A stretch of DNA of 33,224 bases from a virus (lineage: Duplodnaviria > Caudoviricetes): the IMG/VR virus record IMGVR_UViG_3300020045_005034, positions 1 through 33,224 of that record; one strand, 5' to 3'. Position 1 is the stretch's first letter. The number at the start of each line of letters is the position of its first letter. Position numbers and translations under genes: made by a program. Below the pieces are notes generated by a model. That model did no database searches. It was not told the origin of the DNA and worked only from the letters and a program-made list of their open reading frames with translations. Of this stretch, positions 7,439-33,224 are shown piece after piece.

Positions 7439-7467
7439 TCGCTTAAAAAACAACGGCTCTAATAGAA
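7439..7467 (+). promoter_or_regulatory. 29-bp motif, copy 2
   Basis: TCGCTTAAAAAACAACGGCTCTAATAGAA. Confidence 0.85.
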
Positions 7468-7541
7468 CTATATTTTAAAAGGTATCTTTATTAAGACGAA
7501 AGTAGTTTGATAACAGTAAAGAAAGCTTCGGCTTTCTTTTT
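7465..7541 (+). ncRNA. Candidate ~75-nt small RNA (ORF-less cassette)
   Basis: Bounded by motif 2 and a terminator. No ATG or GTG start and no good RBS inside. Confidence 0.5.
7518..7541 (+). terminator. Intrinsic terminator
   Basis: AAAGAAAGC-TTCG-GCTTTCTTTTT. Confidence 0.85.
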
Positions 7542-7546
7542 ATGAG

Positions 7547-8649: not shown

Positions 8650-8766
8650 GTGAGTAAATTCTTAAATTATTGTGTTGACTATTATGAGATATTTGATGAT
8701 TGGCTCTATCGGACATTAACAAAATTGCTCGTACGTATATTTGACTTCGTAACCTCGCGTAAATAA
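8650..8766 (+). CDS. 38-aa hypothetical peptide
   Basis: GAAAGGA RBS, GTG start, stop inside motif 6. Confidence 0.45.
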   Translation: MSKFLNYCVDYYEIFDDWLYRTLTKLLVRIFDFVTSRK

Positions 8767-8783
8767 CAATGGCTATAATGAAG
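8755..8783 (+). promoter_or_regulatory. 29-bp motif, copy 6
   Basis: TCGCGTAAATAACAATGGCTATAATGAAG. Confidence 0.85.
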
Positions 8784-8854
8784 AAAAAGTTAGCTCAGTC
8801 GGTAGAGCGCACAGCAATAATTGTGAGGCATTAGTTCGAATCTAATACTTTTTC
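8784..8854 (+). ncRNA. tRNA-like cloverleaf with non-canonical 6-nt anticodon loop (isotype undeterminable)
   Basis: Acceptor AAAAAGT/ACTTTTT, D arm GCTC-AGTCGGTA-GAGC, anticodon arm CACAG-CAATAA-TTGTG, T arm ATTAG-TTCGAAT-CTAAT. No encoded CCA. Confidence 0.8.
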
Positions 8855-8889
8855 TTTTATATTTTTGAAAAAGGGGGGGGGGTACTAGA

Positions 8890-8982
8890 ATGGTTCGTAC
8901 GTACACTACACCAAGATGTCCGACATGTGGCTGGATCTGCTCGACTAAGTATTGTCAGAATTGTGGAGCAACAAGAAAGTAA
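8890..8982 (+). CDS. 30-aa Zn-ribbon micro-protein
   Basis: MVRTYTTPRCPTCGWICSTKYCQNCGATRK, with a G10 run in the RBS position. Confidence 0.6.
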   Translation: MVRTYTTPRCPTCGWICSTKYCQNCGATRK

Positions 8983-13310: not shown

Positions 13311-13686
13311 AGGATTGAGTCTCGAAGATTTCAAAAAGCAACTTGATAGTGATGCTCAGCAAACAGTAATTACTCAGAAGGGGCAGATTGAAGAGTTAGA
13401 AAAAAAGATCGAACGGCAGCAAAGGAAAATTTACCAGCAGAATGAAGAAGCATATTACCTCTTCAAACGCTGCAGCGCATTGACATCAAACACTATGTGT
13501 CAATATTGTGGTATCTCACAAAGATGTCATGATGTGTGCTCTATATTTGATGCTAAATTGAAGGGTAAACATGCTGAAACTAGTGTTATTGATGATTGTC
13601 ATCTGATGGATAATCCTGGTGCTAGATTAGAAATGTATGCAGCACTTGGTGGGTTGTTGAAGTCGCAGGAAAAACAATGCCTCTAA
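13303..13686 (+). CDS. Coiled-coil/Cys-containing hypothetical protein
   Basis: 127-aa ORF, stop lies in motif 7. Confidence 0.7.
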   Translation: MSKGLSLEDFKKQLDSDAQQTVITQKGQIEELEKKIERQQRKIYQQNEEAYYLFKRCSALTSNTMCQYCGISQRCHDVCSIFDAKLKGKHAETSVIDDCHLMDNPGARLEMYAALGGLLKSQEKQCL

Positions 13687-13691
13687 TAGAA
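13663..13691 (+). promoter_or_regulatory. 29-bp motif, copy 7
   Basis: TCGCAGGAAAAACAATGCCTCTAATAGAA. Confidence 0.85.
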
Positions 13692-13721
13692 GCCAAAAGG
13701 CAATTTTAGGAGGAAATCACC

Positions 13722-13955
13722 ATGAAGAATGAAGATTTGATCGTCAGCGCATTAGGTATCATTGGACTCATTATAGTAGTTCCCATAGTAATAAGGGGAA
13801 CACTCATAGGAGTATCATTGGTAGGTAGTTGTGTTGAGCAAGGAAGAAACACTATGAAGTTCCACAAAGAAATGAAAAAGGGCATAAAAGAAGGAAAGAT
13901 AGTCAAAATTAATGGCGAGTATTACAATGTAGTACAGACCATTGAGGAAGAGTAA
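13722..13955 (+). CDS. Cassette membrane protein
   Basis: AGGAGG RBS, N-terminal TM helix. Confidence 0.8.
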   Translation: MKNEDLIVSALGIIGLIIVVPIVIRGTLIGVSLVGSCVEQGRNTMKFHKEMKKGIKEGKIVKINGEYYNVVQTIEEE

Positions 13956-13970
13956 TCTTCCTTTCTTTTT
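13945..13970 (+). terminator. Intrinsic terminator with stop codon in GTAA loop
   Basis: AGGAAGA-GTAA-TCTTCCT-TTCTTTTT. Confidence 0.8.
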
Positions 13971-13973
13971 CAG

Positions 13974-14002
13974 TCGCTTAAAAAACAATGGCTCTAATAG
14001 AA
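13974..14002 (+). promoter_or_regulatory. 29-bp motif, copy 8
   Basis: TCGCTTAAAAAACAATGGCTCTAATAGAA. Confidence 0.85.
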
Positions 14003-14075
14003 GGGTATGCTAGTTTAAAAAGGTAAAACACTCACAACTGTGTGAGAGAATTCGGTTCGAATCCGCGGGCTCTTC
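14000..14075 (+). ncRNA. Second, more degenerate tRNA-like cloverleaf
   Basis: Closing stem GAAGGGT/GCTCTTC, D arm GTTT-AAAAAGGTA-AAAC, anticodon arm CTCAC-AACTGT-GTGAG, T arm CGG-TTCGAAT-CCG. No CCA. Confidence 0.7.
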
Positions 14076-14100
14076 TTTTATATTTTTGAAAGGAGTATTT

Positions 14101-14253
14101 ATGATCACCGAGACAGAAAAGGAAAAGCTATTTGAGGAGCTTGGTATAAAATCCCCATCAAAAGTATATTTTGAAATGCTAAATGAAGTTAGAAAGGAGC
14201 AGCCAAATGCCAATCGAATCGAGAATGCAGAAGTTAATAACAATTCTGAATGA
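14101..14253 (+). CDS. 50-aa hypothetical protein
   Basis: GAAAGGAG RBS, ATG 14101, overlaps the ligase start. Confidence 0.55.
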   Translation: MITETEKEKLFEELGIKSPSKVYFEMLNEVRKEQPNANRIENAEVNNNSE

Positions 14254-15448
14254 AGCATGTAGGGATTATTATTCTGGAGTTGATGAGTCACCGATGTCAG
14301 ATGCTCAGTATGATCGATATTTGACAGAGTTAAAAGCTCTTGAGGCTGAGGCAGGCTATAAACTAGCTGACTCACCAACAGTTAAAGTAGGTTAAGAGGA
14401 GACGGACGATAAGATTAAGCATTATGCTCCGATCCTTTCTTTAAGAGACACTAAAAGTGTTGATGAACTTCTACATTTCTTAGGGCAGGAAGAGGGAATC
14501 TTATCTTGGAAACTCGATGGTATAAGTATTGTCTTATATTATCAGAACGGGCATCTCGAACGAGCAGTTAGCAGAGGCGATGGGTTTTATGGTAAGGATA
14601 TTACGAAAAATGTTATGCTTATGCGTGATGTGCCTAAGACTATAGATAGTAAAAGCACTCTTATTGTCCGGGGTGAAGGTTGTATATCCTTAGACGATTT
14701 CGCCGATCTCAAAGCTACTAAAGAAGGTGAAGGTTATAAAAATCCACGTAATCTAGCGGCAGGACTTATTAATAGCACTCGAACCACAAGCTCACTGCTT
14801 AGATACATGACTTTTGTAGCACATTCAATCATATTTGTTGCTGGGAGAGGGCGTAATCTAACTACTCGATCCGAGCAATTTGAGTATTTAGAGAAACTTG
14901 GTTTTCGGGTTGTACCACATATTAAGGTGGTCAACTATATTCTCAAGCACCAAATTGAGACTATGACGGGTATGATCGAGAACTTCGAATTCCCTGTAGA
15001 TGGGCTTGTTCTGGCACTTAATGACTTAGTACATAGCAACTCACTAGGCAGTACTATGAAATTCCCTAGGGATAGTATGGCTTTCAAATGGCCAGATGTC
15101 TCAGCTATGACGAACGTAACTGGTATGAAATGGAGCGTTAGTCAAACGGGTCTTATTACACCAGTAGTCTTATTTGAGCCTATCCAACTCGAAGGTACTA
15201 CTGTCAAGCAGGCTAACCTGCATACACTGAAAGTATTTGAGGAGCTTGGTATTGGTATTGGCGATATGATTGAGATTTATAAGGCTAATAAGATTATCCC
15301 GGAGGTTGCTGAGAACTATACCCGCTCCGACACAGAAGATTATCCACGTAAATGTCCTGTATGCAAGCAGGAGACCACGGTTGTAGCCAATGATAAAACT
15401 AAAAAGTTATATTGCTACAATTGCGCAGTGAAAGGGGGAGGCACATGA
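14207..15448 (+). pseudogene. ligA: NAD+-dependent DNA ligase homolog with in-frame TAA at 14393-14395, lacking HhH and BRCT domains
   Basis: Domain Ia YY....PMSDAQYD..SPT.KVG*, then in the same frame H..P.LSL, WKLDG, SRGDG..G.DIT, VRGE, NPRN.AAG, DGLV, AFKW, OB fold TGLITPV, and Zn finger CPVC..CYNC. Confidence 0.85.
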
Positions 15449-16266
15449 TTAAGGCTATCAAAGATCTCGGTGGGGTTATTTCTCAAAACAGTCCAACTAT
15501 CCTAACAGGTGTAGCAGTTACAGGTCTGGTAACGACGGTTATTCTGGCAGTGCGAGCTACACCAAAAGCAATGGCCTTAATTGATGAGGAGGTATATAAG
15601 CAGTATGAAGAGAGCAAATCAGAAGACAGCTTCGCAGAATGGTTGGGGGTGGATGGAGGAGCCTACACATGGAAGGATCGGACAAACCTCCTTACCAAAA
15701 AAGAGACGGTCAAGATCACTTGGAAGTGCTATATTCCGGCGGCAATTAGCGGTACAATTACTATCGCTTGCATTATTGGTGCTCATAGCATTCATAGTCG
15801 TCGGACTGCTGCAATAGCTAGCTTATATTCTCTTACTGAGATTGCTTTGAAGGAGTACCAAGCTAAGGTAATTGAGACGATAGGCTCTAATAAAGAGCTC
15901 AAGATCCGAGATGATATTTCTGGCGATCATGTCAAGAAGAATCCAGTAGGTAATGCGGAAGTTATATTTACTGGTAAAGGAGAGACTTTGTGCTATGATC
16001 CAATGTCCGGACGATATTTCAAAACCGATATTGATAAGGTTAAGAAGGCTGAATACAAACTTAATCGTGATCTTAGGAATGAGATGTTTATAACACTTAA
16101 TGAGTTTTATGACGAGCTTGGCCTAGCACATATTGGTTTGGGTGATGAGATGGGCTGGAACATTGATCATGCCTCAATTGAAATTCGGTTCAGTGCTCAA
16201 CTGGATGAGACCGATTCACCATGTCTTGTGTTAAACTATGAAGTTATACCAAGATACAAATCATAA
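15445..16266 (+). CDS. DUF6353-like conserved phage protein
   Basis: SPTILTG..VTG.V.T..LAVRATPKA, CYD..SGRYF, LNEFYD.LGL....G..MGW. ATGA overlap with ligase stop. Confidence 0.8.
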   Translation: MIKAIKDLGGVISQNSPTILTGVAVTGLVTTVILAVRATPKAMALIDEEVYKQYEESKSEDSFAEWLGVDGGAYTWKDRTNLLTKKETVKITWKCYIPAAISGTITIACIIGAHSIHSRRTAAIASLYSLTEIALKEYQAKVIETIGSNKELKIRDDISGDHVKKNPVGNAEVIFTGKGETLCYDPMSGRYFKTDIDKVKKAEYKLNRDLRNEMFITLNEFYDELGLAHIGLGDEMGWNIDHASIEIRFSAQLDETDSPCLVLNYEVIPRYKS

Positions 16267-21381: not shown

Positions 21382-21410
21382 TCGCTAAAATAACAACTGT
21401 TCTAATGAAG
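21382..21410 (+). promoter_or_regulatory. 29-bp motif, copy 11
   Basis: TCGCTAAAATAACAACTGTTCTAATGAAG. Confidence 0.8.
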
Positions 21411-21443
21411 CTAAGCTTCTATATTTTGAAAGGAAGAAACACT

Positions 21444-31072: not shown

Positions 31073-33224
31073 ATGGGCGATGAATTAAGACATTATGGCA
31101 TGCCAAGACGCTCTGGGAGATATCCTTGGGGTTCTGGGGAAGATTCATATCAAAGAGCTATCGGTTGGCAAGAACATGTTGAAAGACTTCGCAGGCAAGG
31201 CATGAGTGATGCCGATATTGCTAAAAATGAGGGTATCAAAACTCCACAGTTAAGAGCTCGAATCTCGATTGCCAAAAATGAACAATGGAATACTGATCGA
31301 AATATTGCAGTTGCTCTTAAAGATAAAGGATATTCTCAAAGTGAAATTGGTCGTAGGATGGGACGTAATGAATCTCAAATTCGCAATTTCCTAAATCCAG
31401 TTCTTGCTGAAAGAGCGGCTATAACAGCTACTACTGCTAAGATGCTTAAAGAGAATGTTGATAAGTATCGGTATATTGATGTTGGAACGGGTATAGAAAA
31501 TCATTTAGGAGTTAGTCGTACCAAACTAAATACTGCCGTTGCACAATTAGCTGAAGAAGGTTATAAAATTCATAGCTTACATGTAGATCAACAAGGAATG
31601 CCAGGACAGTTTACAATTTATAAAGTATTAGGCTCTAAGGATAGTAGTTGGAAAGAATTAAAAGATGATATCAGTCTTCTTAAAAACATAACAACAACCT
31701 CTGATGACTTTGGAAGAACTTACAATACTTCAGATTTAGGATTAAAACCAATTCAACATTTGAATGTGGATCGAGTTAAAGTCCGATATGCTGAAGAAGG
31801 CGGTGGAGATCGGGATGGAGTTATTGAACTTCGTAGAGGAGTTGAAGATCTCAATCTTGGAAATTCCAAGTATGCACAAGTTCGAGTTGGAGTTAATGGA
31901 ACTCATTTCTTAAAAGGTATGGCCGTTTATAGCGATAAGATTCCAGATGGTGTCGATGTAGTATTTAATACTAATAAACATGATACCGGAAATAAACTTG
32001 ATGCTATGAAAAAACTTAAGGTAAATCCAGAGACAAAAGAAGTTGATCAGGATAATCCTTTCGGCGCCACTATCAAGAGAGAACTCGATGGTTTTGGTAA
32101 CTTAGTATCCGCTCAAAAAGGTGCATTAAACATTGTTAATGAAGAAGGTGATTGGGAAAAATGGTCAAAAACCATATCCTCTCAAATACTTTCTAAACAA
32201 ACAGTCCCCGTCGCCAAAACACAACTTAATTTAGCATGGTCTCAGAAAAAAGAAGAATATGACGAAATTATGGCACTAACAAATCCAGTCATAAAGAAAA
32301 AACTTCTTTTAGAGTTTGCGGATGAATGTGATTCGTCATCAGTTCATTTAAAAGCAGCAGCTCTTCCTAGACAAGCTAATAAGATTATTCTTCCAATTCC
32401 AGATCTTAAGGAAACGGAAGTTTATGCTCCAACATTTAATAATGGCGAAAACGTTGTCCTTATTAGACATCCACATGGTGGCACATTTGAAATTCCCCAA
32501 TTAAAAGTTAATAATACTTCTAAAGCAGCAAAATCTATCATGGAAAATGCATCAGATGCTATTGGTATACATCCTAATGTTGCCAAGAAACTTTCTGGAG
32601 CCGACTTTGATGGAGATACTGTAATCGTTATTCCAAACAATCGAGGTTTAATTAGAACATCAGATTCTTTGAAGGGTCTTGAAAATTTTGATCCAATTGA
32701 AAAATATAAACCTTATGATGGAATGAAAACGATTGATGGAGGAATTTATAACGCTAAAACTCGAGATGTAGATTATGGAAATAAGAAACCTCGAGCTCAG
32801 ACTAAACAAACCAAAATGGGTGAAGTTTCAAATCTAATTACAGATATGACTATTAAAGGGGCCAGTTTAGACAAAATAGCAAGAGCTGTTAAACACTCAA
32901 TGGTTGTTATTGATTCTGAAAAACATCATCTTGATTATGCCCGTTCTTATAAAGAGAATGGGATTGCATCTTTAAGTGAAGAATATCAGAATGGAAAACG
33001 TGGTGGTGCCTCAACTCTAATATCAAAAGCATCATCTGAATTAAGAGTTGATGAGCGAACACCTAGACATGCTAAAGATGGAGGCCCAATAGATCGTATT
33101 ACTGGAGAAAAGGTCTATACAAAAACTGGTGCTACTTATGAGAAGATGAAAGTTTCTATTGATCCAGTAACTGGAAAGAAAATATATACTCCTACTGGTA
33201 AAATTATTAAGAAACAAACACCTT
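31073..33224 (+). CDS. Single-chain two-barrel (double-psi beta-barrel) RNA polymerase with N-terminal HTHs, 3'-incomplete
   Basis: Read by hand from ATG 31073 (MGDELRHYGMPRRSGRYPWGSG...) with no stop to the window end (at least 717 codons). Contains LKGM, LIRHPH and the catalytic LSGADFDGD (DFDGD at 32603-32617). HTH-like GYSQSEIGRRMGRNESQIR. Confidence 0.88.
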   Translation, partial: MGDELRHYGMPRRSGRYPWGSGEDSYQRAIGWQEHVERLRRQGMSDADIAKNEGIKTPQLRARISIAKNEQWNTDRNIAVALKDKGYSQSEIGRRMGRNESQIRNFLNPVLAERAAITATTAKMLKENVDKYRYIDVGTGIENHLGVSRTKLNTAVAQLAEEGYKIHSLHVDQQGMPGQFTIYKVLGSKDSSWKELKDDISLLKNITTTSDDFGRTYNTSDLGLKPIQHLNVDRVKVRYAEEGGGDRDGVIELRRGVEDLNLGNSKYAQVRVGVNGTHFLKGMAVYSDKIPDGVDVVFNTNKHDTGNKLDAMKKLKVNPETKEVDQDNPFGATIKRELDGFGNLVSAQKGALNIVNEEGDWEKWSKTISSQILSKQTVPVAKTQLNLAWSQKKEEYDEIMALTNPVIKKKLLLEFADECDSSSVHLKAAALPRQANKIILPIPDLKETEVYAPTFNNGENVVLIRHPHGGTFEIPQLKVNNTSKAAKSIMENASDAIGIHPNVAKKLSGADFDGDTVIVIPNNRGLIRTSDSLKGLENFDPIEKYKPYDGMKTIDGGIYNAKTRDVDYGNKKPRAQTKQTKMGEVSNLITDMTIKGASLDKIARAVKHSMVVIDSEKHHLDYARSYKENGIASLSEEYQNGKRGGASTLISKASSELRVDERTPRHAKDGGPIDRITGEKVYTKTGATYEKMKVSIDPVTGKKIYTPTGKIIKKQTP

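Follow-up and report, generated by a model that had tools for sequence, protein, structure and literature searches.

A class of tRNA-shaped elements with paired ends directly behind a promoter-like phage motif

The locus and its two tRNA-like elements

The DNA analysed here, referred to as the window, is a whole phage contig of 33,224 nt. Among the proteins it encodes are a primase-polymerase (phrog_4210) and one resembling single-chain RNA polymerases (phrog_4291), the latter with best matches in Arthrobacter, Gordonia, Streptomyces, Rhodococcus and Lactococcus phages, and its phage supergroup is the one described in earlier work (10.1101/842583; PMC7302621). The window contains 12 copies of a 25-nt motif, TCGC-N3-AAWAAC-N6-TMTAAT, every one on the + strand. 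None of the 12 is among the 52 sigma-70-like sites predicted in the window, the number of which shows no excess over shuffled sequence (48.1), and a -35 box is lacking. In the Gordonia phage Vardy the motif with its TATAAT has been termed promoter-like, in a source that reports no tRNAs (PMC9671010). Given that the motif is known from that work just as promoter-like, we infer, and do not presuppose, that its copies are promoters of the phage. The motif may serve as promoter for the phage-encoded single-chain RNA polymerase; pairing in the tRNA-like elements hints at a start 1-3 nt past its hexamer.

Immediately 3' of one motif copy, at 13999-14076, lies a cloverleaf-like sequence, henceforth element 2 (Table 1). 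The D loop AAAAAGGUA, the T loop UUCGAAU and the CTCAC/GTGAG stem noted in a preliminary description of the locus are all present, with the GG retained in the D loop. The T arm, as read, runs UUCGG, UUCGAAU, CCGCG and has a stem of 3 Watson-Crick pairs; in the canonical 7-bp acceptor register, 4 of 7 pairs form. The same description had drawn a 6-nt middle loop. One extra A-U pair converts this into a 6-bp stem with a 4-nt loop, and since the minimum-energy fold (closing stem, D arm, 6-bp middle arm) likewise has the 4-nt loop, that drawing is preferable to the one with 6 nt.

ARAGORN and Rfam leave element 2 undetected and find only element 1 in the window, at 51.6 bits against the Rfam tRNA family (RF00005) and with an undetermined anticodon. 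Folding energy is ordinary for element 2 (z -1.08) and, with z-scores from -0.0 to -1.6 for both elements, uninformative as proof of structure. A profile made from 51 homologues, excluding the window copies and the subtype of element 2, recovers both elements, with E values of 3.7e-9 for element 2 and 4e-15 for element 1 against 2.3 for the match ranked third; a covariance model finds no third copy in the window.

Both elements end in a 19-nt tail that is identical at 8852-8870 and 14073-14091. Repeated 19-mers number 13 in the real window, nearly all of them promoter or RBS boxes, compared with 0 in 30 simulated windows. The identity of the tail, emphasized in the preliminary description, is thus borne out, but the tail, restricted to the two window copies, is no mark of a class: each of the remaining 65 clusters introduced below has at least 3 differences from it, and element 2's nearest relative bears another. 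The tail of element 2 leads into AAGGAG and an ATG at 14101, and a terminator-like site is predicted at 14054-14071. Placement before the RBS of a long operon, asserted earlier for both elements, holds for element 2 and fails for element 1, behind which come a 10-G run and a 30-codon ORF. In that stretch (8873-8982) the G run would act as the Shine-Dalgarno sequence, and the ORF has two CxxC motifs; the run could be length-variable or an assembly artefact.

The closest relatives of element 2, at loci L236 and L237, differ from it at two closing-stem positions. They have another tail and another next ORF, their ligase gene is uninterrupted, and the cassette upstream of element 2 in the window is absent, so that the element directly follows the upstream motif copy. 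The in-frame TAA in the ligase gene of the window could be a nonsense change or an assembly error. The 50-aa ORF has an exact 19-nt repeat (14129-14147 and 15234-15252) in common with the ligase gene, in whose 3' part the second copy lies; the ORF may hold a piece copied from that gene. Further terminator-like sites are contained in the operon of element 2. The second DUF6353 gene of the window is preceded by a plain hairpin with a similar tail (21407-21419). Elsewhere, at 7439-7546, a motif copy, ~80 nt without ORF, a hairpin with U tract and the next motif copy make up a candidate for a second small-RNA cassette, of non-tRNA type.

Table 1. Positions of the two elements and associated features in the window
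Feature	Positions	Strand	Remarks
Motif copy ahead of element 1	8755..8779	+	From motif scan
Element 1	8780..8870	+	Main-type class member; 11-bp closing stem, 5-bp middle arm with 6-nt loop, no CCA
Inserted cassette	13663..13973	+	Motif copy, 77-aa ORF (13722-13955), hairpin terminator (13944-13963)
Motif copy ahead of element 2	13974..13998	+	Promoter-like; putative promoter
Closing (acceptor-like) stem of element 2, 5' strand	13999..14010	+	AGAAGGGU, 3-nt bulge AUG, C7; offset in all 7 subtype sequences
U8-A9, D arm, A26	14011..14030	+	GUUU / AAAAAGGUA / AAAC; invariant block in subtype alignment
Middle arm in place of anticodon arm	14031..14046	+	6 bp CUCACA/UGUGAG, 4-nt loop ACUG; no anticodon
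Variable loop AGAA and T arm	14047..14067	+	3 Watson-Crick pairs CGG/CCG, loop UUCGAAU; T-stem covariation in class
Closing stem of element 2, 3' strand	14068..14076	+	GGCUCUUCU; no CCA
U-rich tract and Shine-Dalgarno	14073..14095	+	19-nt tail common to element 1, then AAGGAG; probably a leaky terminator
First downstream ORF, 50 aa	14101..14253	+	No family; other ORF there in close relatives L236/L237
NAD-dependent DNA ligase gene	14207..15448	+	In-frame TAA at 14393-14395; L236 homologue uninterrupted, 417 aa
DUF6353 gene	15412..16266	+	Family most often 3' of elements of the class
Single-chain RNA polymerase-like gene (phrog_4291)	31073..33223	+	Truncated by contig end; supergroup marker; candidate motif reader

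The class, its variants and its distribution

In IMG/VR, a forward pattern (motif, 45-75 nt, T-loop consensus) has at least 119 loci. Among the matches listed, grouped into 64 clusters at 85% identity with false matches included, the T-stem positions taken by fixed offset pair in 48, 53, 58, 57 and 64 of 64 clusters, and none of 5,000 shuffles reaches the values of the first three. When the search was reversed and only the motif and the D arm served as anchors, 78 clusters resulted, of which 62 close the D stem; the exact T loop with its stem recurs in 47 of these 62, or 49 if one mismatch is allowed, and the remaining 13 have the T loop altered or missing or are chance matches. A scan of whole-genome contigs returned 68 loci, mostly chance, of which 9 were kept and 59 left out as duplicates or chance. 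Parsing of all loci resulted in 80 clusters; 13 were removed by hand as weak or wrongly parsed, probably with some real members among them, and the 67 kept have less than 85% identity between clusters in the IMG/VR set.

Across these 67 clusters, U8, A14 and A21 occur together in 62 and the D-loop GG in 61. The D pair 11-24 is C-G in 46 clusters and U-A in 18, the pair 13-22 is C-G in 42 and U-A in 20, and position 15-48 is G-C in 25, A-U in 16 and A-A in 12; class-wide, the D stem is 97.4% paired, with two-sided changes. In a MAFFT alignment of the 58 clusters with loops of 9 nt or less, 79.8% of cells pair compared with 61.3% in shuffles and at most 53% in slid controls, and two-sided changes affect 292 cells compared with 117 in shuffles, the shuffle ignoring kinship. 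By this covariation, the fold is conserved among the homologues.

The middle arm is free, in the homologues of element 2 as in the class. Its loop has 3 nt in 8 clusters, 4 nt in 29 (14 of them GNRA), 5 nt in 8, 6 nt in 9, 7 nt in 1 and more in 12, as counted by a parser that extends stems to their maximum; a 7-nt loop with U33 can be drawn in 3 of the 67. None of the clusters encodes CCA, and all 7 acceptor pairs are present in 21. With loops ranging from 3 to 29 nt, the 6-nt loop does not characterize the class as had been supposed. Its marks, as read from the predicted folds, are instead the D/T elbow, a free middle arm, the absence of an encoded CCA, paired ends and a U tract. Every stem covaries and the place right behind the motif is fixed; the earlier view that an RNA class is at hand, not two broken tRNAs, is strongly supported, and we regard it as nearly certain that the class of tRNA-shaped elements is real.

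Element 2 belongs to a subtype of 7 sequences in which the D arm, with its A-rich loop, and the block CGG-UUCGAAU-CCG do not vary and the closing stem is offset by 3 nt. The middle arm varies freely in sequence and length, and its pairing stays. G18 is missing in 5 of 6 subtype clusters, that of element 2 included, and the T stem is weak. Two subtype members (L044; L089/L124) are followed immediately 3' by a new motif copy. A K-turn at the 3-nt bulge was considered and rejected, as no tandem G-A pairs were seen by eye after the bulge. Of other embellishments in the class, one hairpin module sits in the middle arm of L127 (3026-3110) and L006 and replaces the T loop in L291, and L240 and L312 have a hairpin inside the D loop.

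The class likely descends from real tRNA genes, to judge from its sequences. One cluster (L110, L148, L162) has a 5-bp stem with the Lys(UUU)-type loop CUUUUAA and scores 68.5 bits against RF00005; it combines a canonical anticodon arm and a 7-bp acceptor with the lack of CCA and a start right at the motif, and could represent the ancestral state or a working tRNA. L008 and L034 look like the Lys(UUU)-type arm shrunk to UUAA or UUCG loops. That the members at large are tRNA genes in decay, or decoders whose altered loops evade nucleases, would accord with the first of these clusters and with a published proposal that phage tRNAs with altered anticodon loops act in counter-defence (PMC10264068). 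Decay, however, would not keep stems by two-sided changes at the frequency observed; GNRA caps in 14 of 67 clusters and the rarity of a drawable 7-nt loop with U33 also speak against it, and intact tRNA genes with normal loops are present in the same phages. The decay reading is already largely refuted for the class, and the combined explanation we hold to be very improbable.

Members were found in one phage supergroup, which includes cultured Gordonia, Rhodococcus and Lactococcus phages. The polymerase gene occurs in 36 of 48 carrier records and in 24 of the 27 that are at least 90% complete. The element is accessory: it is carried by 3 of 24 records chosen by polymerase gene, a set in which 11 of 14 IMG/VR records are less than 90% complete, and, among these, by 1 of the 11 cultured phages. 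Carrier genomes have 1-3 copies. The 'tRNA-OTHER' features of Rhodococcus phages ReqiPoco6 (GU580942) and ReqiPepy6 (GU580941) are class members; members are also present in Gordonia phages OhMyWard and Vardy and in Lactococcus phage P1046, where no RNA is annotated. The unannotated member of Vardy (ON970622, 32548-32631) stands alone, and its OhMyWard counterpart, having lost the following motif copy, leads into a gene. Stand-alone cassettes, with a new motif copy next, amount to 8 of 67 clusters by regex plus L044, and occur as well in ReqiPoco6 and Vardy; tandem copies are found at L250, L038 and L354. Six whole-genome matches that were fetched all start at a motif copy, and two partial matches in carriers are true tRNA-Met genes. 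In 8 fetched stretches, 7 true tRNA genes (Met, Leu) lie further downstream without a new motif, some true tRNA genes being placed behind a plain hairpin with U tract or behind a mimic (L351-L353). Because they lie past the U tract without a new motif, the U tract must be read through at least partly.

The slot behind the motif also accommodates other topologies. A search for T loops close behind the motif gave 19 stretches, about half of them chance matches in coding sequence. L358 is a full circular permutation in the order closing stem, variable loop, T arm, capped acceptor, UA and D arm; its permuted tRNA body (1226-1300) is complete, with the acceptor capped by a 4-nt loop, and the record is without a Ro60 gene. 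The T arm comes first also in L357, L370 and L359/L373, and three-way junctions with a T arm are seen in L356/L367 and L364. The primase-polymerase is encoded in 3 of 5 records with permuted or three-way forms, and the permuted-form pattern had 0 matches in 27 whole records. Common to all predicted forms is a T arm within paired ends, then U's. Since permuted and three-way forms occupy the same slot, neither tRNA end has a fixed geometry.

Sealed multi-branched RNAs that are not tRNA-like appear behind the motif in L346:11861 (OhMyWard), L489 (Arcadia), L490 (Teacup) and L491 (Lewando), and further in L504, L507, G027:11681, G029:31000 and 32719 and G039:14932, some of them stand-alone, and probably represent additional RNA families not yet described. 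One small gene family is preceded, in many gut phages of the group, by a short conserved 5' hairpin that comes straight after the motif (L196-L233, ~17 loci).

Proposed start site, downstream genes and a tentative function

In 63 of 67 clusters, pairing in the closing stem begins at the first or second nucleotide past the hexamer. With the pairing register chosen by energy, which favours G-C, a G at nt 3 faces C in 18 of 23 cases and a G at nt 4 in 21 of 24; just behind the closing stem, C accounts for 26 of 402 bases. This pattern suggests that transcription starts within ~3 nt of the TATAAT-like hexamer. The usual start of sigma-70 promoters is 6-8 nt past the hexamer, and the nearer start proposed here fits a phage polymerase; it would be the first hint of the start position for the supergroup's unstudied polymerase. 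Where no T loop follows the motif, 5' hairpins are not in excess (108 compared with 92 in shuffles), and the notion that most motif copies carry a 5' hairpin was dropped on that count.

Downstream of the elements, an RBS follows within 50 nt in 45 of 67 clusters and a new motif in 8 (plus L044, a regex miss), with neither in 14. The next ORF belongs to one DUF6353-type family in 16 of 39 cases, the rest falling into 17 families. In a set of 30 DUF6353 loci from genomes picked by polymerase gene regardless of the element, 12 have no motif within 1.5 kb. A motif lies more than 800 nt away in 11, with 10 short open leaders and 1 sealed cassette, and within 600 nt in 7, of which 6 have a long end-sealed leader, not tRNA-like in 5. 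As 6 of the 7 near-motif copies are end-sealed and 5 are not tRNA-like, a sealed 5' end may be the conserved job. Another search, covering 10 DUF6353 loci, found no motif within 700 nt upstream, except at one cut locus. The long operon, originally seen as the setting common to such elements, does not distinguish them: in 12 near-complete carriers, as counted by a regex that misses divergent motif copies, a motif-free stretch exceeding 1 kb lies behind 5 of 14 mimic-bearing motif copies and 44 of 104 plain ones (p 0.78), and 3 of the 14 stand alone.

Paired ends at the very start of a message invite an explanation in cis. Decay that depends on the 5' end involves RppH, and RNase J in Bacillota and Actinobacteria. 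A 5' cap combined with an attenuator could shield the message start from such decay, the compact tRNA body offering few single-stranded entry points and the U tract setting the level of read-through; the closing stem may in addition hold a pyrimidine strand off the Shine-Dalgarno sequence. The pairing from nt 1-2, the start of all six fetched matches at the motif with true tRNA genes further downstream, the frequent RBS and DUF6353-type gene next to the element, the non-tRNA sealed leaders in the same slot of non-carriers and the plain hairpin before the second DUF6353 gene of the window all argue for this role. Predicted Shine-Dalgarno pairing, which goes from 0.55 to 0.77 on removal of the 5' strand (46 cases, no control; a rise exceeding 0.2 in 20 of 46), points the same way, but the rise is due to base composition, with a purine start and a purine Shine-Dalgarno. 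Moreover, a plain hairpin would do, and the covarying tertiary elbow positions in phages of two host phyla are left unexplained; units of more than 1 kb are headed by 44 of 104 plain motif copies, which have no such leader, and in stand-alone and tandem copies the next motif comes without a gene in between. We rank the cap and attenuator second and consider it a serious candidate, if on balance an unlikely one.

Two further explanations assign the fold a role within the transcript. As a processing signal, the elbow would recruit RNase P or RNase Z, and the cut would set the 5' end or the lifetime of the message, or free a mascRNA-like small RNA. The T arm, the main RNase P determinant (PMC4919913), is common to all forms, RNase Z would not be blocked as no CCA is encoded, the full 7-bp acceptor is present in 21 of 67 clusters and t-elements provide a precedent (PMC1920247). 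Yet the 7-bp register is mismatched in 46 of 67 (element 2 forms 4 of 7 pairs and has a bulge), pairing of leader and trailer extends past the cut sites, the permuted forms hide these sites in a capped hairpin where cuts would not part the element from the gene, and at a transcript's very 5' end there is nothing upstream to punctuate. We judge processing improbable. The other explanation is nascent-RNA antitermination, of which put of phage HK022 is an example: the fold would bind the transcribing polymerase and aid its passage of the U tract and later terminators. It would suit a promoter-proximal position with the U tract next and the additional terminator-like sites in the operon of element 2. 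The accessory occurrence (3 of 24), the lack of enrichment before long units and the interchange of normal and permuted topologies stand against it, and it gives no reason for tRNA elbow bases; an antiterminator is, in our estimation, hardly to be expected.

The reading that we rank first, tentatively, is that the element gives rise to an RNA of ~80 nt, made from the adjacent motif and serving as a trans-acting decoy for a host factor that binds tRNAs at their elbow. Transcription would be started by the phage promoter-like motif adjoining the element, within ~3 nt of the hexamer. The closing stem and U tract would end some transcripts, the remainder continuing into the next gene, and the D and T arms would fold into a tRNA elbow. 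An elbow-gripping enzyme whose site of action is the anticodon or the acceptor end would then find no target and be titrated; candidates are a tRNA-attacking defence effector, RNase P, RNase Z or the CCA enzyme. An RNA with a docking surface but without reactive ends would have the anatomy of an inhibitor. Elbow readers include RNase P, T-boxes, the L1 stalk and the CCA enzyme (PMC4919913), and anti-phage effectors are described that hit the tRNA anticodon, the variable loop or the CCA end (PMC10264068; PMC13096335; PMC11559606).

The decoy is favoured by the retention of the elbow bases when neither working end is kept (a 7-nt loop in 1, CCA in 0 and the full acceptor in 21 of 67 clusters), by the permuted forms and the stand-alone and tandem copies, by the absence of enrichment before long motif-free stretches, by the accessory occurrence (3 of 24) and by the lack of 5' hairpins at most motif copies. 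Because a plain hairpin would suffice to seal the 5' end, the kept tertiary positions ask for an elbow-reading partner or a compact fold. Against the decoy it must be held that 45 of 67 elements run into an RBS within 50 nt, so that read-through must occur and a role in cis has to be reckoned with, that the T loop is altered or missing in 13 of 62 D-arm-anchored clusters, that 5 of 6 subtype clusters have no G18 and a weak T stem, and that no partner gene co-travels with the element. A leaky terminator yields both products, and decoy in trans and cap in cis are therefore not exclusive. Stated generally, the proposal is that elbow-only, end-sealed tRNA analogues, normal or permuted, inhibit tRNA-attacking effectors or host tRNA maturation and are made by the phage polymerase with a start behind the hexamer; in this general form we consider it unlikely, but such inhibitors, if true, would be the RNA counterpart of DNA-mimic proteins.

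Relation to known systems

With canonical and phage tRNAs (RF00005) the class has in common the arm order, U8-A9, the D stem, the D-loop GG, the T arm and 15-48 covariation, and many members, such as element 1, pass the Rfam score. In contrast to tRNAs, the class lacks the 7-nt anticodon loop and an encoded CCA, has a closing stem of 4-14 bp instead of 7 and starts at a promoter motif. Element 2, which escapes ARAGORN and Rfam, has the D and T arms with elbow bases of a tRNA, if with a T stem of 3 bp; the place of the anticodon arm is taken by 6 bp and 4 nt, and a 7-bp acceptor is not formed. In the GenBank records of ReqiPoco6 and ReqiPepy6, 'tRNA-OTHER' features with the same characteristics as the class are filed as tRNA genes and no class is named; one tRNA each is counted for Pepy6 and Poco6 in PMC13313380, without comment in its accessible part. 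Rfam holds no family matching the class. A full-text search of the literature found no description of it, although Summer et al. 2011 and the alignments of PMC10690425 may bear on this; three member motifs are absent from the text supplements of the latter (Fremin et al. 2023), among whose 10,006 candidates a member may be included. The search likewise retrieved no paper describing the T4 species 1 RNA.

Transcript-end tRNA mimics and promoter cassettes offer partial parallels. The t-elements of plant mitochondria (PMC1920247) and mascRNA (PMC4919913) are tRNA-like, non-decoding and located at transcript ends, and are cut by RNase P or RNase Z. The class differs from them in that its ends are extended and paired, often with mismatches, and do not form a tRNA-length acceptor-T stack with free flanks. 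In the PeSL cassettes of T4-type phages, repeats of promoter, stem-loop and Shine-Dalgarno sequence punctuate and shuffle accessory genes (PMC2839356), and repeats marking cassette gain and loss are known in DJ phages (PMC11008172); the cassette at 13663-13973, gained or lost between motif copies, is a likeness. The PeSL stem, though, is a plain hairpin in or beside a sigma-70 promoter, whereas the stem of the class encloses a tRNA body behind a motif that has no -35 box and none of its 12 copies among sigma-70-like sites.

The Y RNAs YrlA and Yrn1 (RF02553) are non-coding, with paired ends and a tRNA-like D/T domain (PMC4201824), and such a domain inside paired ends is found in the class too. 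Yrn1 has the same arm order and an 'anticodon loop' of 6 nt (PMC4201824), and the permuted L358 matches the YrlA model at 41.9 bits (E 2.8e-6; gathering score 69). RF02553 has no match in the window. A search for a Ro60/TROVE gene found none in the 48 carrier records or in the 5 holding permuted or three-way forms, many of them fragments; its control was positive in 2 of 14 genomes. A Ro60 of the host might bind the RNA. Unlike Y RNAs, the class shows no Ro60-binding helix and is mostly of normal, not permuted, order. Membership in the Y RNAs was rejected, with L358 below the RF02553 cut-off and no TROVE gene in the 48 and 5 records.

Why phages carry tRNA genes is a long-standing question. 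With the carriers Vardy, OhMyWard and P1046 in culture on harmless laboratory hosts and the natural non-carrier Kerry alongside, a non-decoding role is directly testable. Non-decoding tRNA mimics as such are already known from YrlA and Yrn1 (PMC4201824) and from t-elements (PMC1920247). 'Undetermined' or pseudo-tRNA calls in phage genomes are usually discarded as debris; here they make up a class under selection that retains the elbow and disables the two working ends, with normal and permuted topologies swapping in one slot.
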